From an uncultured Bdellovibrionales bacterium (lineage in GTDB: Bacteria; Patescibacteriota; Minisyncoccia; Moranbacterales; DUUL01), in the NCBI GenBank assembly GCA_964556685.1, contig CAZKWX010000001.1:11417-75416 (forward strand): a stretch of DNA of 64,000 bases, read 5' to 3'. The notes beneath the pieces are model-generated. The model had not been told where the DNA came from. It saw nothing but the letters and a program-made list of their open reading frames with translations, and did not search any database. Both the position numbers and the translations under genes were made by a program. Positions 4,444-58,918 of the stretch are shown piece by piece. How positions within the stretch are numbered: the first letter of the stretch is position 1; each line of letters opens with the position of its first letter.

Positions 4444-5424
4444 ATGGCGAAAGGAGCTAAAGAAATACAACGAAGAATAAAATCAGTTGGCAACACTCGA
4501 AAAATCACTCGAGCGATGGAAATGGTGGCCGCTGCCAAGATGAAGAAGGAAGTTTCTCGCGTTTTGGCTATTCGGGCATATGCTCATAGCGCCCAGATGG
4601 TTTTAACATATCTATCTCGAGCATTTGCTAAACAGAAGCATGGTTTGTTAGAAGTACGAGAAGTCAAGAGAATCTTAGTGGTCTTAATTACATCGAACCG
4701 GGGACTATGCGGTGCTTACAACACTCAGGTGATAAAAAGACTCATAGACCAAGTGGAAAACCCAAAACTTCTGAAAATCAACCGAGTCGGAACAAAGAGA
4801 ATCGAATCAACAGTGCCGGATGATCAGATTGAGTTTGACTTTATCGCAGTGGGAAAGAAAGGCTTTGAACAACTCAATGCACGAGGAAAAAATGTGATTG
4901 CTGAATTTGAAGATTTGAATTACACACCAACACCAGATTCTGTTTGGCCATTAGCCAAGATTGCTATTGATGACTATCAGAATGCAAATTATGACAAAGT
5001 AGTAGTAGCCTACACCGACTTCAAGAACTCTCTGATTCAAGAACCAAAGCTGCGTCAGATTTTGCCGATTTCAAAGATTGACTTGGAAAAGCAAATTGAG
5101 GAAATGAGTTCTGGGATTTCTGGTGATGAAATTCAGGAAACAGAATCAAAGGAAGAAGAGCAGATTGATTATACGATTGAACCAGATCCGCAAGTTGTGG
5201 TGAAACATATGTTGCCGAGGTTGGTGGAAATGCAGCTTTATCATGCCATTTTAGAATCTAATGCTTCACGAGAATCGGCTCGGATGATGGCTATGAAAAA
5301 TGCTAATGAAGCAGCAGGAGAAATGATACAGCTGTTGCAATATTCATATAACCAGATTCGCCAGATGGGAATTACTCAAGAGATTGCGGAGATCACTTCG
5401 GGAAGAACGGCACTTGAGGATTAG
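4444..5424 (+). CDS. atpG: F0F1 ATP synthase subunit gamma
   Basis: N-terminal IQRRIKSVGNTRKITRAMEMVAAAKMKK and C-terminal NQIRQMGITQEIAEI coiled-coil motifs characteristic of gamma. Confidence 0.9.
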   Translation: MAKGAKEIQRRIKSVGNTRKITRAMEMVAAAKMKKEVSRVLAIRAYAHSAQMVLTYLSRAFAKQKHGLLEVREVKRILVVLITSNRGLCGAYNTQVIKRLIDQVENPKLLKINRVGTKRIESTVPDDQIEFDFIAVGKKGFEQLNARGKNVIAEFEDLNYTPTPDSVWPLAKIAIDDYQNANYDKVVVAYTDFKNSLIQEPKLRQILPISKIDLEKQIEEMSSGISGDEIQETESKEEEQIDYTIEPDPQVVVKHMLPRLVEMQLYHAILESNASRESARMMAMKNANEAAGEMIQLLQYSYNQIRQMGITQEIAEITSGRTALED

Positions 5425-5518
5425 TTTTTATAAGCTAGTTATACGCTTTAATACTATCGCCAGTATTACGCCAGCGTATCACCAGCGTTTAGTCAAGGTG
5501 TATTACTGGCTTATATTT

Positions 5519-6073
5519 ATGTTGGAAGTTGAAGCTAAAATTAGAGTAAAAGACCTGGAAACCGCTAGAAAGAATCTCAAAAAGCTGGGAGCCAAAAAAG
5601 TGGAAGAAAAAGTCCAAATTGATAAAGTGTATGGGCGAGATTCTGATTTAGACGACGAGCATAAGGTAATTGAAGGAAGATTCAGCGCCAGGATTAGAAA
5701 GACTAACAAAGTCTGCCGGATTGATTTTAAGGAGATTTTGCGAGGCAAACCAGGCGACGAACATAACATTGAACTGAGTGACATTGATGAGGGTGATAAG
5801 TTTTTACAAAAATTGGATTATAAAGAGGCCTTCACATCGGAGAAGAAAAGGGAAATCTATGGATATGAAAGTTTTGAAATTTGCTTGGATGACTTTCCAA
5901 AACTTGGCTATTTCATTGAAGCAGAAAAAAAGATTGAAGAAGGAGAAAGCAAGGAAGATGCGTATAAAAGTTGTGTGGAAGTTTTGAAGAAAATTGATCC
6001 AAGGGGAGAGATTGAAAACAAAAAATATGGGGATTTGATTCAGGAAGTGATTAATGAGAAAGGGAAGTTTTAA
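5519..6073 (+). CDS. CYTH-domain protein (class IV adenylyl cyclase / triphosphate tunnel metalloenzyme-like)
   Basis: N-terminal MLEVEAKIRV carries the ExExK signature of CYTH. Acidic clusters downstream. The tool ORF 5384 start overlaps the atpG tail; the in-frame ATG at 5519 is preferred. Confidence 0.55.
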   Translation: MLEVEAKIRVKDLETARKNLKKLGAKKVEEKVQIDKVYGRDSDLDDEHKVIEGRFSARIRKTNKVCRIDFKEILRGKPGDEHNIELSDIDEGDKFLQKLDYKEAFTSEKKREIYGYESFEICLDDFPKLGYFIEAEKKIEEGESKEDAYKSCVEVLKKIDPRGEIENKKYGDLIQEVINEKGKF

Positions 6074-6080
6074 CACACAT

Positions 6081-6157
6081 GTCATCTCGACCGAAGCGAA
6101 GTGGAGAGATCTCATGACAACTCACGAGATTCCTCGACTACGCCCGGAATGACAGTG
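6081..6157. repeat. MITE-like element, family B (ATGTCAT..CGA ... TCG..ATGAC terminal inverted repeats)
   Basis: Shares the GAGATCTCATGACAA / GAGATTCCTCGACTACGC core with copies at 34258, 43219 and 60996. Confidence 0.7.
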
Positions 6158-6165
6158 AATTAATT

Positions 6166-6654
6166 ATGAAAAAGTACAATAAAACAGTTCAAGACATTAA
6201 AACGCTGCTGGAGAAAAATGATATCGAATACAAGTTCTTTGAGCACAAACCAGTCAGGACTAGTGAAGAGGCAGTGAAAGTAAGGCCAGATTATAGTTTG
6301 CAACAAGGAGCCAAAGCTATGATTGTCAAGCCCAAAATTAATGGCGAAAGAACATTCGTGATGCTGGTTTTGCCGGGAGACAAGCGATTTGACAACAAGA
6401 AGGTGAAAAAAGTTTTGGACGCTAAAGATGTTACTTTCGCATCCGAAGAAGAAGTCGCCAAATTGACAAATGGAGTAATCCCAGGAGGAGTTCCACCGTT
6501 TGGTAATTTGTTTGGACTGAAAGTGGTTGCTGATCCTGATTTATTTAAAAATGATGAAATAGTTTTTAACTGTGGTGATCAGAGCGCTTCAATTGCAATG
6601 AAGAGTGAAGACTATGAACGAATTGTCAAACCAGAAATTGTCGAGATAACTTAG
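6166..6654 (+). CDS. YbaK/ProX-type aminoacyl-tRNA deacylase domain protein
   Basis: ~160 aa. GVIPGGVPPFGNLFG and CG..SASI motifs resemble the YbaK/EbsC trans-editing domain. Confidence 0.6.
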   Translation: MKKYNKTVQDIKTLLEKNDIEYKFFEHKPVRTSEEAVKVRPDYSLQQGAKAMIVKPKINGERTFVMLVLPGDKRFDNKKVKKVLDAKDVTFASEEEVAKLTNGVIPGGVPPFGNLFGLKVVADPDLFKNDEIVFNCGDQSASIAMKSEDYERIVKPEIVEIT

Positions 6655-6718
6655 GAGCAATTTGAAATTTGAAGTTTGTAATTTTTATTCAATTTATAAT
6701 TAATCAATTTCGAATTGA

Positions 6719-8134
<1,416 letters not shown>

Positions 8135-8139
8135 GAGGT

Positions 8140-8212
8140 AAGATCTAGGATTTAAGAATAAATTCAAATCCCCCACCTCGAGTACGAGGCACCCCCTTTA
8201 CTAAAGGGGGAA
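8140..8212. repeat. Element related to family G (TTCAAATCCC ... CCCCCTTT ACT AAAGGGGG hairpin)
   Basis: Begins GATTTAAGAATAAATTCAAATCCCCC like the 1545 and 9030 copies. Ends in the CCYCTT-N3-AAGRGG hairpin module. Confidence 0.55.
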
Positions 8213-8256
8213 ATAAAGAAATGCTGTAGTGGTACGACATGCTATATTGAAAAATA

Positions 8257-8288
8257 GTATATACCAACGTATATACGAATGTATATAC
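8257..8288. repeat. GTATATAC x3 array (family D)
   Basis: gtatatac-caac-gtatatac-gaat-gtatatac: three copies of the palindromic 8-mer at 12-bp phase. Confidence 0.8.
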
Positions 8289-8307
8289 AAATTAAGCAAG
8301 TATCTTT

Positions 8308-9006
8308 ATGGTATTGCTCGGACTTACAACTTCAAAAAGATCAAATTGGCAGCAGAAAATAAGAGAAGCGTCATATTATAATATTGAAAAAATATCACTT
8401 TTCCCTACGTATTCACGGATATCTGAAAGAAAAAAACTCTACGAAGCGATTGATGGGAGTACCATTGTTGAAATACCTCATGTGCATCTGTGCCATGATA
8501 TAGAATTGTGGGAGCTAGATTATTTTGTTAAAGAATACAATACCCAAATTTTTAACATACACACTGAGAGATTATTTCCGCTGGAGAATGATATTTCAAA
8601 GTATAATTCCAAGATATTCGTTGAAAATGCAGGACTACCCACAGAGAATGAATTAAAGAAATTCGGTGGTTTCTGTATAGATTTTGCACATTGGGAAGAC
8701 TATATAAGATTAGAGGGAGAAAAGTACAATCCAGAAGAGGATAAAATCAGGGACTGGATGAAGAAGTATGATGTTGGTTGTGGTCACGTGTCAGCAATTT
8801 CAGAAGAAATACACGAAGATGAGGGCATTCCAGGAAGAATGTGTTATGCCTCGCATTGGATGAATAGTCTGGATGATATAAAATATATGAAAAAATATGT
8901 CAAGTATGTTTCTAAATATGTTAGTATTGAGTTGGATAATCCTTTCAAGGAACAACTCAAGGTGAAGAAATACTTAGAGAAAATTCTATATAAAAGGATC
9001 AATTGA
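8308..9006 (+). CDS. hypothetical protein, possibly xylose-isomerase-like TIM-barrel (sugar phosphate isomerase/epimerase) fold
   Basis: Conserved H/E/D-containing segments (IFVENAG, CIDFAHWED, CGHV). Inserted between atpD and atpC. Weak assignment. Confidence 0.3.
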   Translation: MVLLGLTTSKRSNWQQKIREASYYNIEKISLFPTYSRISERKKLYEAIDGSTIVEIPHVHLCHDIELWELDYFVKEYNTQIFNIHTERLFPLENDISKYNSKIFVENAGLPTENELKKFGGFCIDFAHWEDYIRLEGEKYNPEEDKIRDWMKKYDVGCGHVSAISEEIHEDEGIPGRMCYASHWMNSLDDIKYMKKYVKYVSKYVSIELDNPFKEQLKVKKYLEKILYKRIN

Positions 9007-9029
9007 TGAAGTGAAGAGCAAGAATTAGG

Positions 9030-9118
9030 AATTAAGATTTAAGAGTTCAAATCCCTCTGAAGAATATGACTCGCATAGCTCGTCTATATTTTTCTTCTCC
9101 CTTTGCTAAAAGGAGAAG
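9030..9118. repeat. Family G element (GATTTAAGAGTTCAAATCCCTC ... GCTCGTCTATA ... CTCCCTTTGCTAAAAGGAGAAG)
   Basis: Near-identical architecture to 1545-1622. Contains a tRNA T-loop-like GTTCAAATCC but no tRNA cloverleaf. Confidence 0.65.
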
Positions 9119-9214
9119 ATTGGAAAGAAAAGGAATAAATAACTATACAACGTTGCTGTGTCGAGAAATAGTACTTGCCATAGTAAGTACGTCCGAGCAC
9201 GTATTAGAATCATT

Positions 9215-9871
9215 ATGATCAGAAAAAATGTCCCATTTTATGCCAATACGGCAGACAATACACACTGCTTTCAGGCTTCTTTGAAAATGGTAATGAAGTA
9301 TTTTTGGCCAAATAGGAATTATTCATGGAAAAAATTAGATAAAATCACCGCAAAAATTCCTGGACTATGGACCTGGCCAATGGCAGGACTGATCTGGTTA
9401 CAAAAACAAGGAATTGAAATTGCGATGGTTGAAGCTTTTGACTATTCAAGATTCATAAAACTAGGAGGAGAATATTTAATTGAGGAATTTGGGAAAGAAG
9501 TAGGGGAAGCCCAGATCAAACACAGTAATATAGACCAAGAAATAAGATTTGCGAAAGAATTTTTGGAGAGAATTAAAATTGAAAAACGAATTCCCAAATT
9601 AAAAGACATAAAAAGATTTTTAAAGAAAGGTTATGTCATTATATGTAATGTTAATTCTCGCAAATTAGCAAAGAAAGAAGGGTATGTCGGTCATTTTATC
9701 GTTATTTTTAATTTTAATGATAAATATCTTTTTCTTCATAACCCTGGTCTTCCACCCCAAAAAAATCAAAGAGTAAGTTTTAAGCAATTTGAAAAAGCTT
9801 GGGCTTATCCGAATGAAAGAGCAAAAGGAATAATAGCGTTAAGAATTAACATTACTAACCAAGATATTTAA
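9215..9871 (+). CDS. C39-like papain-fold cysteine peptidase domain protein
   Basis: NTHCFQASLKMVMKYFW (Cys motif) and GHFIVIF (His motif) resemble Peptidase_C39-like domains. The tool ORF starts at GTG 9158; the in-frame ATG is at 9215. Confidence 0.4.
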   Translation: MIRKNVPFYANTADNTHCFQASLKMVMKYFWPNRNYSWKKLDKITAKIPGLWTWPMAGLIWLQKQGIEIAMVEAFDYSRFIKLGGEYLIEEFGKEVGEAQIKHSNIDQEIRFAKEFLERIKIEKRIPKLKDIKRFLKKGYVIICNVNSRKLAKKEGYVGHFIVIFNFNDKYLFLHNPGLPPQKNQRVSFKQFEKAWAYPNERAKGIIALRINITNQDI

Positions 9872-9984
9872 TAAATTTTGGACCACAACGCCTCGAAATA
9901 AAACGCCGCATCTATGACAGAGCAAGAAATAAAGGGGCGTAGTACTGGCGATTTAAGCAGGGCGTTCTACTGGCATATACAACA

Positions 9985-10428
9985 ATGAAAAAAATCAACC
10001 TAAAAATAACCACTCCGGAACGAGTGGTGCTAGAAAAAGAAGTTGATCAAGTAACTCTGCCGACTAAGGGAGGGGAGATTACGATTTTGCCTGATCACGT
10101 GCCATTGCTTTCTACCATTACGGCTGGGATCATTGTGGCCAAGATCGACGAACAAATTTCTCCTATGGCGATTTCAGGCGGTTTTTTGGAATATCACAAC
10201 AATCAAGTGACGGTTTTGGCTGACACAGCAGAAAGGGTTGAAGAAATAGATTTGGATCGAGCAGAAGAAGCTCGAAAAAGAGCCGAAAAATTGAAACAGG
10301 AAACCAGGAAAACGCTTGACGAAGGACAATATGCTGCGGTGGTCTCGCAAATTGAGAAACAACTTGCTAGAATAAAAGCAGCCCAAAAATATCGACCTCG
10401 TAGCAGTTCGACATTGGGCGATGAATAG
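9985..10428 (+). CDS. atpC: F0F1 ATP synthase subunit epsilon
   Basis: N-terminal beta-sandwich (ITTPERVVLEKEVDQVTLPTKGGEITILPDHVPL) plus C-terminal helical hairpin. Last atp gene. Confidence 0.85.
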   Translation: MKKINLKITTPERVVLEKEVDQVTLPTKGGEITILPDHVPLLSTITAGIIVAKIDEQISPMAISGGFLEYHNNQVTVLADTAERVEEIDLDRAEEARKRAEKLKQETRKTLDEGQYAAVVSQIEKQLARIKAAQKYRPRSSSTLGDE

Positions 10429-11965
10429 AAATAAAAGACAAATTTTGATAAAAAAAATACCAACTTGGGTTTTGATCTCATTAGCCCTGATTTTGGCTTT
10501 GGGGCTGTTTTTACGTGTCTATAAACTTGGCCAACAATCACTCATAGCTGATGAATATTTGGGGATGAACATTAGCTATGGCTACAATCAAACAGGGGAA
10601 TGGACATTCTGGGATTTCAACAAACAAAAATTGATGGAGTGGGATTATAATCGAGCTCAAATTTATTATTGGCAAGTAGCTCAAGTTTTCAACTTTTTTG
10701 AGCCAACCGAAGCCAACTCTCGCTTGATAAGCGTGATGTGGGGAATGATCGGATTACTTTCAATTTTTTTGATTGCTTTTTGGGTGACAAAAAATTATGT
10801 TGTTGCGCTGATTTCAACCTTGCTTTTGGCAGTGAGTGTTTCTTCACTGACTTTTGATCGAAAGCTGAGAATGTATTCAATGTTTGTTCCGATATACCTT
10901 TGGCTATCCTATTTTTTATATATGTTTATAGAATCTCAGCCGAAAAGGGGGCCAAACTTTATCAAAAATATATCAGAAAAAACCAAACTTAATTGGAATT
11001 TCTTTCTGCCCGCTATTCTATTGGGACTTATATCAGTAGCAACGCATTTACTGGCAGTTAATATTGGAATAGTGTTGTTAGTCTACTTGCTAGTTATGGC
11101 TTGGAAGGCTCGCAAAAAAGAAAAAGCCTGGGCCAATCGATATTCCTATTACCTTATAGTTTTTTTGCTGCTCATTATTATTGGAATGAATTTCAGTTAT
11201 GCTCAACTAGCGTTGAAAGAATTTTCTTTCTGGATAAACAATTGGAGTTACCTATCAAAAGCCAGCTTGGATTATAGTCACATGTTTTTGGCCGGACTCT
11301 TCTTGGTGGCCGGAATATATTGGCTGATTAAAAATAATTCAAAGAAAGGAATTTGGATTGTTGTCTCATATTTAACAATTCTTTTCTTGGCAATTATGGT
11401 TTGGAGAAGAAGCGCTGGGCATCAGTATCTGCTTTTCACCCAACCTTTCAAGATTATGATCATCGCTGGTGGAATCTATTTTATTTCAGATGTTCTTTCT
11501 AAAGAAGTTTTCAATGGCTCAAGGAGGTGGTTTTGGGGACTGATTACAACCTTTTTAATATTGCTGATTAATTTTTCGTTCTTTTCCTCAAAGGAAAGCT
11601 TTTATGCTGGTCCCAAAAGTTGGTCCCACACAAACTATCGTGAGGGATATGATTATTATCATAAGCACCGAAAAGCTAACAGCGCAGTCATCATTCGTCC
11701 AGCGGTGACCTATTACCTGAAGGGCGTGAACACCGATGTCATTGAATACAATGAGGATGACAAGCTTCAGCTAGAAGAAATACTCAGCGCTCAAAGTAAG
11801 TATGATGAAATTTGGTTTATCTATTCAAAAGACACCTATGTAAGTGGAGATGCCAAGGATCATATTCGAGAGAACTTTGAACTAATCGAAACTAAATATA
11901 CTAACAAGAAATTGCAAATTAGAAGGTGGCAGAAAGAAGATACAAAAAATAACGCCAGCTCATGA
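10421..11965 (+). CDS. GT-C family membrane glycosyltransferase (PMT/ArnT-like, GT39/GT83-like), paralog 1
   Basis: ~12 TM helices. DE motif in the first extracytoplasmic loop (SLIADEYLGMN). Overlaps the atpC stop by 8 nt. Confidence 0.6.
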   Translation: MNRNKRQILIKKIPTWVLISLALILALGLFLRVYKLGQQSLIADEYLGMNISYGYNQTGEWTFWDFNKQKLMEWDYNRAQIYYWQVAQVFNFFEPTEANSRLISVMWGMIGLLSIFLIAFWVTKNYVVALISTLLLAVSVSSLTFDRKLRMYSMFVPIYLWLSYFLYMFIESQPKRGPNFIKNISEKTKLNWNFFLPAILLGLISVATHLLAVNIGIVLLVYLLVMAWKARKKEKAWANRYSYYLIVFLLLIIIGMNFSYAQLALKEFSFWINNWSYLSKASLDYSHMFLAGLFLVAGIYWLIKNNSKKGIWIVVSYLTILFLAIMVWRRSAGHQYLLFTQPFKIMIIAGGIYFISDVLSKEVFNGSRRWFWGLITTFLILLINFSFFSSKESFYAGPKSWSHTNYREGYDYYHKHRKANSAVIIRPAVTYYLKGVNTDVIEYNEDDKLQLEEILSAQSKYDEIWFIYSKDTYVSGDAKDHIRENFELIETKYTNKKLQIRRWQKEDTKNNASS

Positions 11966-29321: not shown

Positions 29322-29452
29322 AGTTGGGCAGGATGGTTAGGTGACGTATACCTTTTACAGAGCGGACTTGGTCCTTTTAAAAGCTGTTAGGTGGGGACTA
29401 AGTTCGTTGTATATCAAACTTGGCCGTTCTGCCCATTTTTTATAGGTCAATG
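29322..29452 (+). ncRNA. candidate structured small RNA (closing stem TGGGCAGGA...TCTGCCCA plus U-tract)
   Basis: ~125-nt intergenic segment whose ends pair (TTGGGCAG / CTGCCCA), followed by TTTTTTAT on the + strand. Internal hairpins GGACTTGGTCC and GGTGACGTATACC. Confidence 0.2.
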
Positions 29453-29874
29453 AAGAAACCTTTCTGGGCCTTTTTTGTTTCCAAGCGTTTTGTGATTTCT
29501 TCAACATTCTTATCTTTATTCCAAATAACTCTAACCAAGGCTTTATGCTCTCCGGATCTCAATGATTCTATTTCTTTTTTCACTTCATTTGGAGTCGCAA
29601 CTGACGACTTTCCACCGCTGGGAATTTCCACTTTTTCAGTGTGGGACAACTGGTCGTCCATGTAATATTCAACCGTGAAAGTTCTTTTTTGCGGTTCGGA
29701 ATTATTGATGAAGAAATCAAGATTGCTTAAATTACTATCTATAGTCTCAAATCCCACCACCACAAAACCACGAGTGGCTTTTTGGTTGAGAACTTTGTCG
29801 CCATGCCGAAACAGGATGCCAACGGCACCGAATATTATGATTAATATTAATACAATTAACAATTTTGACTTCAT
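29440..29874 (-). CDS. N-terminally TM-anchored hypothetical protein
   Basis: Single N-terminal TM helix, then a soluble domain. No motif recognised. Confidence 0.4.
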   Translation of the reverse strand: MKSKLLIVLILIIIFGAVGILFRHGDKVLNQKATRGFVVVGFETIDSNLSNLDFFINNSEPQKRTFTVEYYMDDQLSHTEKVEIPSGGKSSVATPNEVKKEIESLRSGEHKALVRVIWNKDKNVEEITKRLETKKAQKGFFIDL

Positions 29875-29880
29875 TTTTCT

Positions 29881-29960
29881 TGTTTTTCTTCCCCTCTTCT
29901 TAAGAGGGGACTGAATTCATTGGTTTTGAATTCAGGGAGTTCGTCGGGAGGCTGTTATGT
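29881..29960. repeat. hairpin-module repeat (CCCCTCTT-CTT-AAGAGGGG + CTGAATTCA-TTGGTTTT-GAATTCAG)
   Basis: The TGAATTCA-N-TGAATTCA hairpin module recurs at ~36518, ~47164 and ~58785. Confidence 0.6.
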
Positions 29961-29979
29961 TTACCAAGTATTATATTCC

Positions 29980-30363
29980 TTAATTATCCAGTCCTAATTC
30001 TTCTCTAATTTTGAACAAAATCCCGTCTAAATTATTATATATTTCATTGTTCCAAAATCTGACAGCCTTAATTCTTTGTGTTTTTAAAAATTCAGACCTA
30101 TTCTTGTCACTTTCTCTGCTACTTTCATAAGCATGTTGATCCCCATCTAATTCTATGGCCAGTCTCTTTCTAGGACAATAAAAATCTAAAATGTATTTTC
30201 CTATACTGTATTGCCGATAAAATTTGTATCCCTCAATTTGTTTATTTCTTAACTGTTGCCATAATTTTCCTTCAGCGTCAGTCTGATTTTTTCGAAAAGC
30301 TCGGGGCAATTGTTTAGATCTTTTTTGATTGTGTCGATTAGACAACATCTTTTTATTTATCAT
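29980..30363 (-). CDS. DUF559 / Vsr-like endonuclease-fold protein
   Basis: YRQYSIGKYILDFYCPRKRLAIELDGDQH matches the DUF559 (very-short-patch-repair endonuclease-like) core. ATG at 30363. Confidence 0.6.
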   Translation of the reverse strand: MINKKMLSNRHNQKRSKQLPRAFRKNQTDAEGKLWQQLRNKQIEGYKFYRQYSIGKYILDFYCPRKRLAIELDGDQHAYESSRESDKNRSEFLKTQRIKAVRFWNNEIYNNLDGILFKIREELGLDN

Positions 30364-30380
30364 TGACAACTGCCAGATAG

Positions 30381-32467: not shown

Positions 32468-32496
32468 TTGACAAAATACTTATAAAATGATATAAT
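32468..32496 (+). promoter_or_regulatory. consensus sigma70-type promoter TTGACA-17-TATAAT
   Basis: TTGACA at 32468-32473, 17-nt spacer, TATAAT at 32491-32496. Lies ~85 nt upstream of the ATG at 32584. Flanked by the 11-bp inverted repeat AAACAACATTT / AAATGTTGTTT. Confidence 0.5.
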
Positions 32497-32583
32497 CATA
32501 GAATATAATAAATGTTGTTTTTTTTAAATAATCTCTCAATAGCGACGCAAAATAAACCAACAGAAATCAGTGAGGAAAGGAGA

Positions 32584-33015
32584 ATGGCCATGCAAAGGTT
32601 TATTGTCAAGCAAGGAAATTTTGAGGTAATGGAGTTTCCCGGTGAAAGTTTCTGTAAGGTGCCAGGCGCCGTTCATAATGGACAGCATTGGCAGGCACCG
32701 GGCAAGATTCTTGTTCAACTAGAGTCTGATGACGAAAGAGGGGCGGTATTCTCATTGTTTCATCCCAAAACGAATGGCGTTACAACTGGCCATGTTGACA
32801 TCATCTTCGCAATTCATGGGAAAAATGCGGAGTTGAGACGATATTCCGGGATGAAAAAAATATCATTAAGAAGTGCGCTCTTCAAGATGTTTTGGCCAGA
32901 TGGGCCGAACCATCTCATCGAGACCTTACGTTCATTGGGTGGTAGTTTCATCAAGAACCATCAGGCTACCCGTTTCGGACGAATCGTTATTTTGGCCGCT
33001 AACAGTTTGAATTAA
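32584..33015 (+). CDS. hypothetical protein
   Basis: GAGGAAAGGAG Shine-Dalgarno before the ATG at 32584. 143 aa. No recognised motif. Confidence 0.45.
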   Translation: MAMQRFIVKQGNFEVMEFPGESFCKVPGAVHNGQHWQAPGKILVQLESDDERGAVFSLFHPKTNGVTTGHVDIIFAIHGKNAELRRYSGMKKISLRSALFKMFWPDGPNHLIETLRSLGGSFIKNHQATRFGRIVILAANSLN

Positions 33016-33032
33016 TAAGCGGCATGAACAAA

Positions 33033-33077
33033 AAAGGTCCCGTCGACAGACAATTTGTCGATGGGCCTTTATCTTTT
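33033..33077 (+). terminator. rho-independent terminator
   Basis: GGTCCCGTCGAC-loop-GTCGATGGGCC stem followed by TTTATCTTTT. Lies 18 nt after the stop of 32584..33015. Confidence 0.6.
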
Positions 33078-35393: not shown

Positions 35394-35607
35394 GGGTAGT
35401 AGTTTGTAGTTGCGTTGAGATTAAAAAATATAACAACATTTAAACTTGCCTTTCTAAGGCATTATCACTATAATTATACTCCAAAAGATAATAAGTTACA
35501 ATATTCAACCCAAACAGTCAAGCACTTTTATATTGTTTTTTAAAAATAGCGGAGTACACTTTTGAATAATAAAATCACTTTTTCGGCAATGAAAGAGAGG
35601 TGTTCAA

Positions 35608-36219
35608 GTGACTATAATTCACGATTATCAGCCAAGCAATAAGGAAAAGTTAATAAGCGTGCTATTTCCAAAACTAGCACCTCCAAAACTGTCATTTTCC
35701 AGAAGAATGTGTAGGGAATTACTGGATGAATTCGGAGTGATTCTTGAGGATGAATTACTACCGCTTGGGGGAAAGGAAGAACATATCGTAAGTGCTTTTT
35801 TCGGAGTTTGTGGGAGGCAAGAGGAAACAATGAGGCAGATTTCAAATGAACTTGAAATCTGCTACACACACGTTTCAAGGTTGAAAACGAGAACTCTTTT
35901 TCAGTTAAGACATCGTGCAGGAAAAGAATTTATGGATGTCATAGCTAGGATATCAAAACAATGGGAAGGATTGAAAAAAGAGGTAACGGATTTAAGAAAA
36001 ATTAATTATCCATTCCCGGAAAAAATCTCGGTTTCAGGCCTCTTGTCCAAAGAAATTGTTGACATTCTTGAAGAAAAAAAAGTGTTTAACCTGAAAAAGT
36101 TAGCAACGTGCCCATTCTGGAAATTTAAAAGAATTGGCAAAAAACGCCAGAGAATAATAAAAAGTGTTCTAAAAAAACACATGCTTTATCCAGGTATGGA
36201 AGAGGAGGATTTCAGGTAA
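35608..36219 (+). CDS. putative transcription regulator: sigma-70 region-4-like HTH fused to an RNAP alpha-CTD-like helix-hairpin-helix domain
   Basis: EEHIVSAFFGVCGRQEETMRQISNELEICYTHVSRLKTRTLFQLR fits the sigma region 4 pattern. The C-terminal LLSKEIVDILEEKKVFNLKKLATCPFWKFKRIGKKRQRIIKSVL fits an alpha-CTD/HhH pattern. Confidence 0.45.
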   Translation: MTIIHDYQPSNKEKLISVLFPKLAPPKLSFSRRMCRELLDEFGVILEDELLPLGGKEEHIVSAFFGVCGRQEETMRQISNELEICYTHVSRLKTRTLFQLRHRAGKEFMDVIARISKQWEGLKKEVTDLRKINYPFPEKISVSGLLSKEIVDILEEKKVFNLKKLATCPFWKFKRIGKKRQRIIKSVLKKHMLYPGMEEEDFR

Positions 36220-36338
36220 AAAAGTTATCAAGATGTATAGTGGGTAAAATTTTAGATCATAAAACCGGGAGTCGTCGACACGATTAGCCGGTTTTTTGCT
36301 TGAAAAAAATACTCCATAGAGAACTCTATGGAGGACAC

Positions 36339-36370
36339 GTATATACGAACGTATATACGTTGGTATATAC
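36339..36370. repeat. GTATATAC x3 array (family D)
   Basis: gtatatac-gaac-gtatatac-gttg-gtatatac. Preceded by the perfect palindrome CTCCATAGAG-AA-CTCTATGGAG. Confidence 0.8.
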
Positions 36371-36419
36371 TAGTCTCAACTCGCTAGCATAGCTATGCAC
36401 TTTGGCAACTACTTATTTA

Positions 36420-36585
36420 AGTTTCCTCCCCTTGCTAAGGGTAGAGAATTGCGAATGAGTAATTCTTAAGGAGGGGTTAGTCTAAATGGCAGTAGTCGCC
36501 GGTCATACAGACGAACTCCCCTGAATTCATTACTAATAAATTCAGCACCCTCTTACTAAGAGGGGGGGGGAGCAAGAAGAAAAAA
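36420..36585. repeat. cluster of hairpin modules (CCTCCCCTT...AAGGAGGGG, CTGAATTCATT..AAATTCAG, CCCTCTTACTAAGAGGGGGGGG)
   Basis: Same module types as at 29881, 47141 and 58770. Confidence 0.55.
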
Positions 36586-37878
36586 TTATTTCCTTCCAAT
36601 CCCATGATATTTGATTCCCAGCTTTTTTATTGCTTCGTGATCCAAACAATTTCTTCCATCAACAATTGCCAGAATTTTGTTCTTCTTAAAATCCTCTGGC
36701 TTCAAATCCAGAAACTCTTGGTGATGAGTGGCCAAAATGACTGCCTTTGATTTTTGTAAAGCTTCTTTCGGTGACTTTGCGTCAGACATTCTGGGAAAAT
36801 AGGGATCGAATCTGATGACTTTAGCTCCTCTTTTTTCTAAGATTTTGATCATTTGCAAAGAGGGTGATTCACGAAGATCGTCTACGTTTTCTTTATAAGA
36901 AAGTCCCAAGATGGTTATAGGAGTTCCTTTGATTGGCAATTTGACCTTATTGAGAAGATTTTGCAGAATATCAACTGTATAATGAGGCATGAAACGGTTT
37001 ATTTCTCGTGCTTTGCGCAAAAAGTGATGATCAAACCCAGCCTTTTTCGCTCGCTCAATCAAATAATAGGGATCAACCGGAATACAATGACCACCCACGC
37101 CACAGCTCTGACGGAAGGCCATGAATCCAAACGGCTTAGTGGCGGCTCCGTCAATCACGTCTTTGAGATCAATGTCCATCTGATCAAAACTTTGAGCCAA
37201 CTCATTGACAAAGGCGATGTTGATGTCGCGAAAAGAATTCTCCACCACTTTGACCGCTTCAGCTTCCCTGATTGACTTCATTGGTTTAATTTCTGCATCA
37301 ATAATTGACTCATAGAACTCTTTGGCTATTTTCAATCCTGTTTTCGAAAGAGCACCAACTACTCGAGCAATATTGCTCACGTCATAACCGGCGCTAACAG
37401 AAACTTTTCCCGGGTCAATTCTTTCTGGACAGTGAGCTAAATAATAATCTCGTCCCTCTTTCAAGCCAGCATCCGCAAATATAGGTTCCACTATTTCTTC
37501 GCAAACACCGGGATTAATAGTGGATTCAACGATAACTAGTTGGCCCTTTTTTCGGTTTTTTATGATCAATTCCACGGCTGATTTGATTGGATCAAGAATG
37601 GGATAGAACTGCTCATCGACCGGGGTAGGCACACAAATAATCACCACATCAGATTTTTTTATACTCAAGCCGCTTGAGGAAACTGAAATCTTTTTCAACA
37701 AACTTTTTCGTTTCTCGATGAACTCATCTTTCAGAGGACTTTGCCCTTTTTTGACAATAGCTATTTTTTTCTTGTCTAAATCAATCCCAAAAACTTTGTG
37801 ACCCTTTTCTACACATCGGACTGCTAGTGGCAAACCTACATAGCCAAGACCAATGATAGCAATGGTTTTATTTTCCAT
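36586..37878 (-). CDS. UDP-glucose/GDP-mannose dehydrogenase family nucleotide-sugar dehydrogenase
   Basis: N-terminal IAIIGLGYVGLPLAV Rossmann fold. Catalytic region GFMAFRQSCGVGGHCIPVDPYYL. 430 aa. Confidence 0.85.
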   Translation of the reverse strand: MENKTIAIIGLGYVGLPLAVRCVEKGHKVFGIDLDKKKIAIVKKGQSPLKDEFIEKRKSLLKKISVSSSGLSIKKSDVVIICVPTPVDEQFYPILDPIKSAVELIIKNRKKGQLVIVESTINPGVCEEIVEPIFADAGLKEGRDYYLAHCPERIDPGKVSVSAGYDVSNIARVVGALSKTGLKIAKEFYESIIDAEIKPMKSIREAEAVKVVENSFRDINIAFVNELAQSFDQMDIDLKDVIDGAATKPFGFMAFRQSCGVGGHCIPVDPYYLIERAKKAGFDHHFLRKAREINRFMPHYTVDILQNLLNKVKLPIKGTPITILGLSYKENVDDLRESPSLQMIKILEKRGAKVIRFDPYFPRMSDAKSPKEALQKSKAVILATHHQEFLDLKPEDFKKNKILAIVDGRNCLDHEAIKKLGIKYHGIGRK

Positions 37879-58010: not shown

Positions 58011-58042
58011 GTATATACAGTCGTATATACGTGGGTATATAC
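58011..58042. repeat. GTATATAC x3 array (family D)
   Basis: gtatatac-agtc-gtatatac-gtgg-gtatatac. Lies 10 nt downstream of the stop of the HAD gene on the other strand. Confidence 0.8.
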
Positions 58043-58684: not shown

Positions 58685-58716
58685 GTATATACGAACGTAT
58701 ATACGTGGATATATAT
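58685..58716. repeat. GTATATAC array (two perfect copies plus a degenerate ATATATAT)
   Basis: gtatatac-gaac-gtatatac-gtgg-atatatat. Lies 18 nt upstream of the HAD start. Confidence 0.75.
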
Positions 58717-58898
58717 GTTTAAACTTCGTATGTCTTCTTCAGAGTTGCTTTTGTTAATAGTGATCACCAGCCCTTCGACTAACTCCCCTGAATTCAAAAC
58801 TAATGAATTCAGTCCCCTCTTAACAAGAGGGGAAATAGAATTTCCGCCGGAGTTTGTGCCGCACTTGCCGTATCCGCCTTTGGAGGAATGCGGTGCGG

Positions 58899-58918
58899 GA
58901 ATATACGAACGTATATAC
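58899..58918. repeat. GTATATAC array (two copies)
   Basis: gaatatac-gaac-gtatatac. Confidence 0.65.

Follow-up and report, generated by a model that had tools for sequence, protein, structure and literature searches.

A small orphan protein with a sigma-70 region-4 helix–turn–helix and a basic C-terminal tail in a glycan gene cluster of a Patescibacteria genome

An open reading frame (ORF) of 203 codons, on the 64 kb stretch of contig CAZKWX010000001.1 analysed here (assembly GCA_964556685.1; GC content 38%; hereafter the window), encodes a small protein of which residues ~46–103 are supported, by profile and pairwise homology, as a sigma-70 region-4 helix–turn–helix (HTH). This unit is followed by a basic extension in which an RNA polymerase alpha C-terminal domain (alpha-CTD) of the helix–hairpin–helix (HhH) type is not established by sequence comparison. 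A sequence-only reading of this DNA had proposed a fusion of the two domains; it delimited the ORF exactly, and the peptides that it quoted lie at residues 57–100 and 144–183. Its region-4 half is borne out by NCBIfam profiles, PDB chains, pairwise alignment and two homologous proteins (P0004 and P0005), whereas its alpha-CTD half is neither confirmed nor excluded by a similarity of 7 bits over 30 residues.

Sigma-70 region 4 in residues 46–103

The Pfam profile Sigma70_r4 (PF04545) aligned with residues 56–102 of the ORF protein with E = 0.017 and 15.1 bits. Seven NCBIfam models (SigK, SigE, SigB/F/G, cyanobacterial RpoD-type, RpoS, RpoD and ECF) placed their final ~60 positions on residues 43–106, with a best E value of 3.8e-6, and a PHROG sigma family matched the protein with E = 4.8e-4. 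Six of the ten weak PDB matches (E of 0.2–1.3) were RpoD/SigA region-4 chains, and Smith–Waterman alignment with region 4 of Escherichia coli RpoD gave z = 9.5, a score attained by none of 5000 shuffled sequences. An exhaustive phmmer search of 1.84 billion representative proteins (E ≤ 0.001) returned five proteins: the ORF protein itself and P0002–P0005. Of these, P0002 and P0003, two eukaryotic repeat proteins of retroelement-like type, were considered noise. P0004 and P0005 matched with database-wide E values of 1e-4 to 1e-3, both pass the Pfam Sigma70_r4 threshold (E = 3.8e-27 and 3.3e-14, respectively), and a hidden Markov model (HMM) built from their region-4 modules scored 35.4 bits on residues 46–101, so that homology to accepted Sigma70_r4 proteins extends across the whole 4.1–4.2 unit. 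Taken literally, the Pfam profiles leave both domains of the proposed fusion below threshold; the region-4 assignment survives because of this transitive homology to P0004 and P0005, which carry region 4.

In the alignment with E. coli region 4 the hydrophobic core, the FG motif and the terminal L-R-H are retained, and the recognition helix reads CYTHVSRLK in the ORF protein and TRERIRQIE in E. coli. The positions that we take to correspond to E. coli R584, E585, R588 and Q589 are occupied by Y, T, S and R; these are the residues with which E. coli sigma-70 reads the −35 element. Since the recognition helix is replaced in this way, region 4, if it reads DNA, would target something other than the canonical −35 element. 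As the sequence-only reading had stated, sigma regions 2 and 3 are not represented: neither Sigma70_r2 nor Sigma70_r3 was matched at E ≤ 10 in Pfam or NCBIfam, and just 45 residues precede region 4. The protein therefore cannot alone be a sigma factor.

Compared with region 4 of the group 1–3 sigma-70 factors (PF04545; SigK, SigE and RpoD), ~58 residues align end to end. The ORF protein differs from these factors in having no region 2 or 3, a changed recognition helix and a sub-threshold Pfam score; moreover, the group 1–3 factors normally end after region 4, whereas the ORF protein adds an extension of 100 residues. P0005 (198 residues, HTH_3 and Sigma70_r4) resembles it in its small size, in carrying region 4 without region 2 and in having a second putative DNA-binding part, with 34% identity over residues 28–105 of the ORF protein. 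The second domain of P0005, however, is an N-terminal Cro/C1-type HTH, whereas the extra part of the ORF protein is C-terminal and unrecognised, and outside region 4 the two proteins belong to different families. A stand-alone region-4 HTH thus has a precedent, because P0005 carries region 4 without region 2.

P0005, a second example of region 4 outside a sigma factor, is encoded at positions 2790–3386 of contig L136, which is phage- or plasmid-like, among small co-directional genes. P0004 is one of two adjacent proteins of ~950 residues encoded at 5071–10868 of a Firmicutes-like contig (L137); its architecture is unusual, with at least eight tandem region-4-like modules behind a sigma region 2, and it provides the closest module-level match to the ORF protein.

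The basic C-terminal tail and its resemblance to alpha-CTD

Residues 158–192 contain 13 lysine or arginine residues and no aspartate or glutamate, a composition that is compatible with nucleic acid binding. Word-indexed homologue searches with the full protein and with its C-terminal 99 residues returned only the ORF protein itself. BLASTP against E. coli alpha-CTD aligned 33 residues with 36% identity and a pairwise E value of 0.001, and Smith–Waterman alignment gave z = 3.9. An unfiltered HMM of 120 alpha-CTDs, a narrow model as its listed sequences are all 85–100% identical to E. coli, scored 7.0 bits on residues 172–201 only, covering 30 of its 81 positions. This score was attained by three of 2000 shuffles of the tail (~1 in 700) and by none of 691 natural 79-residue windows from proteins of the window, of which the maximum was 5.2 bits. 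In the HMM alignment KFKRIGKKRQRIIKSVLKKHMLYPGMEEED stands against ktpnlGkkslteikdvlasrglslGmrlen, and the match comprises one hairpin (RIGKK) and the next helix; in alpha-CTD these are the second hairpin and the final helix, and G-K-K is shared.

These similarities would suit a protein in which sigma region 4 is truly fused to a second domain, a double HhH of the alpha-CTD type; both are promoter-upstream DNA-reading modules of the holoenzyme, and the strongly basic charge of the tail is in keeping with such a fusion. The alpha-CTD layout is one of four helices, and one low-confidence AlphaFold2 model has four short helices, of 9, 4, 6 and 13 residues, which resemble it. Structure prediction, which the sequence-only reading had put forward as a check, did not lend the fusion further support: it was weak because homologues are lacking, with pLDDT values of 39 and 50, and fold searches with these low-confidence models gave no alpha-CTD fold match. 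No HhH or RNA_pol_A_CTD family of Pfam matched at E ≤ 10, either in the full protein or in the isolated residues 104–203 and 137–203, and the alpha-CTD profile (PF03118) gave no match over the domain. In a phmmer search against the PDB no alpha-CTD chain was matched. The E. coli alpha-CTD sequence used in the comparisons was verified by its 168 bits to 1LB2_B, and the ORF was absent from the matches with E < 100 when E. coli alpha-CTD was compared with the whole window by tblastn. The likeness to alpha-CTD consists of a 30-residue G-K-K hairpin with an amphipathic helix and of basic charge; the first half of the domain, with its first HhH and the helix of the 265 determinant (R265, N268 and C269), does not align with the ORF protein. 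The frequency of ~0.0015 among tail shuffles moreover overstates the support, as the hypothesis was drawn from the same sequence. We therefore regard the resemblance as a genuine but small outlier, weak in extent at one hairpin and one helix, and the fusion itself as unlikely. The tail was also considered as a degenerate second region-4 module, by comparison with the tandem modules of P0004, and this was rejected, with −2.2 bits on residues 164–185 compared with 35.4 bits on residues 46–101.

The gene, its surroundings and the intergenic repeats

The coordinates of the ORF and of the features around it are collected in Table 1. By chance, an open frame of this length would be expected 0.004 times per 64 kb in six frames at the composition of the window, and of the six frames only that of the ORF scores above zero for codon usage (0.073; −0.15 to −0.53 in the other five frames). 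This length and score mark the ORF as a real gene, though one whose codon usage is atypical. The gene called by NCBI (P0001, 170 residues) starts at the ATG of M34, which has no Shine–Dalgarno-like sequence upstream; the 203-residue form, adopted by the Logan gene calls, is favoured because AGAGAGG precedes its GTG. The identical ORF is present in Logan contigs of two or more independent read sets, one of them seen in five samples, and no variants were found among the Logan assemblies.

Table 1. Features of the window (positions are those of the window)
Feature	Position	Strand	Remarks
ORF	35608–36219	+	GTG start, 203 residues, isoelectric point 9.5; family-level orphan
Sigma-70 region 4 (4.1 and 4.2) HTH, residues 46–103	35743–35916	+	Profile and pairwise homology
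Alpha-CTD-like stretch KFKRIGKKRQRIIKSVLKKHMLYPGMEEED, residues 172–201	36121–36210	+	Weak, 7 bits; second HhH hairpin and last helix; overlaps basic residues 158–192
Shine–Dalgarno-like AGAGAGG	35594–35600	+	7 nt ahead of GTG start
Promoter-like site of ORF, TTGCCT-17-TATAAT	35446–35474	+	10/12 consensus matches; putative function
Promoter-like site facing GT2 gene	35501–35473	−	10/12 consensus matches; putative function
Hairpin AAAACCGG...CCGGUUUU, then U run	36261–36298	+	From fold; predicted intrinsic terminator of ORF
Palindrome CTCCATAGAG-TT-CTCTATGGAG, then TATTTTTTT	36303–36333 (palindrome 36312–36333)	−	Intrinsic terminator; not part of ORF
Structured RNA	36296–36590	−	~280 nt, downstream of UDPGDH
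GTATATAC ×3 array, 12 bp period	36339–36370	.	Intergenic, beside ORF
Further GTATATAC arrays	8257–8288, 58011–58042, 58685–58716, 58899–58918	.	Intergenic; one of the five arrays has two units
Two-hairpin module (GAATTCA..TGAATTC, then CCCCTCTTAnnAAGAGGGG)	36516–36566, 58781–58832, 29891–29945 (−)		Looser copy at ~8166–8210
ORF-B	32512–33015	+	167 residues
ORF-B promoter, TTGACA-17-TATAAT	32469–32497		Perfect consensus
ORF-B hairpin terminator	~33028–33075		
Third insertion	29440–30369		DUF559/restriction-endonuclease-like gene (29980–30369) and 144-residue orphan ORF (29440–29874)

The ORF lies on the opposite strand between a UDP-sugar dehydrogenase (UDPGDH) gene and a GT2 gene, and the predicted −10 boxes of the ORF and GT2 promoter-like sites overlap back-to-back (TATAATTATA). 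From its predicted fold and U run, the hairpin downstream of the ORF is probably its intrinsic terminator, and with the promoter-like site and the Shine–Dalgarno-like sequence the ORF looks like a complete transcription unit. Inverted repeats of 24 nt that flank the ORF (35551–35574 and 36292–36315; 71% complementary) were judged to be due to chance, with 124 such pairs.

The neighbouring UDPGDH shares 71% identity with its counterpart in a Patescibacteria metagenome-assembled genome (MAG; L009) and 57% with the one in a Candidatus Moranbacteria MAG (L010). L009 keeps the gene order DUF4012, membrane protein, UDPGDH, GT2, GT1, membrane protein, GT1, and L010 mostly does so. The gap between UDPGDH and GT2 measures 1192 bp here compared with 624 bp in L009 and 365 bp in L010, and no relative or remnant of the ORF was found in these two intergenic regions by tblastn or blastn, so that the idea of a surviving gene remnant in these relatives was rejected. 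The search for homologues and their contexts that had been suggested for the ORF thus yielded P0004 and P0005, which share region 4, but no orthologues and no counterpart at the syntenic locus. Because the ORF is absent from this locus in two relatives and its codon usage is atypical, it was probably gained recently as an accessory gene, and its acquisition was probably horizontal.

The same cluster holds other lineage-specific insertions. ORF-B, for which Pfam, NCBIfam, PHROGs and PADLOC gave no match, lies on the opposite strand, inserted between the genes for GT1 and a membrane protein that are 13–14 nt apart in the relatives, and the relatives have a gap of at most 447 bp where the DUF559 gene and the 144-residue ORF are inserted. 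PADLOC assigned no defence family to the ORF, and a scan of viral contigs with its protein returned nothing.

A recent foreign origin also bears on the reading of the ORF as a decaying or non-functional fragment, the 3′ portion of a sigma-like gene of foreign, possibly phage, origin whose frame would still be open because it arrived recently and not because of selection. Among 15 billion proteins this orphan has no relative of more than ~30% identity, its codon score is low, it is absent from syntenic relatives and it is accompanied by the small lineage-specific insertions described above; the PHROG sigma family match and the phage-like contig of P0005, its nearest small relative, would suit a phage source. 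A frame of 203 codons at 38% GC is, however, very unlikely to stay open without selection given its chance expectation, the Shine–Dalgarno-like sequence, promoter-like site and terminator are intact, as is the hydrophobic core of the HTH, and the ORF is identical across several independent samples. Decay is on balance improbable.

The GTATATAC arrays consist of palindrome units at an exact 12 bp period with CGTATATACG as the middle unit; the window holds five of them where 0.01 would be expected, and all are intergenic. The array that the sequence-only reading had noted beside the ORF is present, but the link that it implied is not specific, with four other sites in the window, and the arrays adjoin unrelated genes. 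Two lie 17–19 nt upstream of start codons (8308, + strand; 58667, − strand) in the same relative orientation, and the remaining arrays are in convergent or downstream positions. None occurs in 42 kb of the relatives L009 and L010. The triple-array pattern was found in at least 120 metagenome contigs, most of which are plain 12 bp tandem satellites; a subset, mostly low-GC contigs, has isolated three-unit arrays with the CGTATATACG core, all of them intergenic (L051, L055, L073, L083, L085, L097, L102, L104, L129 and L134), and about half of these (L051, L073, L083, L085, L097 and L102) lie 7–20 nt from a gene start or end, resembling the window in this. A role as a private operator of the ORF protein is not supported, in view of the five sites beside unrelated genes and of the 123 array-bearing metagenome or viral loci, in none of which a relative of the ORF was found. 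No specific tie of the array to the ORF is evident; the arrays could serve as operators, promoter elements, terminator hairpins or REP-like repeats, and a literature search on GTATATAC operators found nothing relevant. A more specific version of the fusion, in which a free-standing upstream promoter reader would bind to the GTATATAC ×3 arrays or to DNA upstream of promoters and there recruit RNA polymerase or block it, is highly improbable.

The strong palindrome reported near the ORF is present, one base away from the positions first given for it (36313–36334), and is a minus-strand intrinsic terminator because a U run comes next on that strand. At this terminator (36333–36303) ends a structured minus-strand RNA with a folding energy of −93.1 kcal/mol (z = −6.6; none of 200 shuffles), which could be a structured 3′ untranslated region or a separate small RNA. 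Every Rfam family stayed below its gathering score across the window; the highest match in 35394–36700 was PyrR, with 32.4 compared with 54 bits, and no tRNA gene was found in the window. Copies of the two-hairpin module are 84–87% identical and vary in their spacing from the GTATATAC arrays. All Logan contigs of the organism (L001–L008) break at the GTATATAC array (~36370) and at the hairpin module (~36525), leaving 36371–36524 unassembled, which fits both elements being multi-copy in the genome. The arrays and hairpin modules are regarded as species-specific mosaic intergenic repeats.

Proposed function of the ORF protein

We tentatively favour, at somewhat less than even odds, the view that the ORF protein is a small transcription regulator of the HTH type, probably horizontally acquired, in which region 4 forms the head and the tail is basic, and that it may act on the divergent promoter region. 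Its gene would be an accessory, lineage-specific one inserted into a conserved cell-envelope glycan cluster of a Patescibacteria genome, and the protein would be a sequence-specific DNA-binding regulator and not a sigma factor. The reading head would be the region-4.2 HTH with its replaced −35-reading residues; a long predicted helix at about residues 106–131 may mediate self-association, and the basic, putatively helical tail (residues 158–192), which holds the HhH-like hairpin RIGKK, may add contacts to the DNA backbone. The simplest targets would be the promoter of the ORF itself and the divergent GT2 promoter, because their predicted −10 boxes overlap.

Several observations weigh against this regulator. 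The Sigma70_r4 score is under the Pfam gathering threshold of 24.1 bits, and the AlphaFold2 models are of low confidence. The codon-usage score of the ORF is lower than those of all 28 long training genes of the window (0.18–0.43). No orthologues of the ORF were found, so conservation and covariation provide no evidence of selection. The promoter-like sites are matches to a consensus in DNA that is AT-rich, where seven were found compared with 4.0 ± 1.9 expected. Finally, a role directed at RNA polymerase appears equally compatible with the sequence, because sigma region 4 also binds the beta-flap of the polymerase.

In such a role, region 4 would dock on the beta-flap tip and the protein would compete with or modulate the housekeeping sigma factor, or supply the region-4 half of a split sigma factor. 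The best-matching profiles are those of group 1–3 sigma region 4, including the terminal LRH, and not of LuxR/GerE type, and the changed −35-reading residues would suit a domain freed from canonical promoter reading. SigO–RsoA of Bacillus subtilis is a two-subunit sigma factor (PMC10141391) and provides a precedent for sigma functions split over two small proteins. The ORF, however, has no adjacent partner: no region-2 protein was found among its neighbours (GT2, UDPGDH, GT1 and membrane proteins) in the part of the window that was domain-scanned, and ORF-B has no sigma match. The two systems share no sequence relation beyond region 4, the ORF has no paralogue within the window, and known split sigma factors have nothing that corresponds to its 100-residue C-terminal extension. 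A polymerase-directed factor has, in our judgement, only a small chance of being correct.

Patescibacteria have very few recognisable transcription factors, so that an extra protein binding DNA or RNA polymerase is of some interest, and an upstream-promoter-reader fusion, if true, would be a new kind of global regulator in a reduced-genome Patescibacterium. Region 4 outside a sigma factor illustrates the recycling of modules, and the ORF is an example of the small foreign genes that pepper the intergenic gaps of the conserved glycan cluster. A more general feature than the ORF may be the GTATATAC arrays and hairpin modules that recur in this genome. The ORF protein itself is a singleton, of value mainly as a region-4 HTH orphan that is now correctly annotated.
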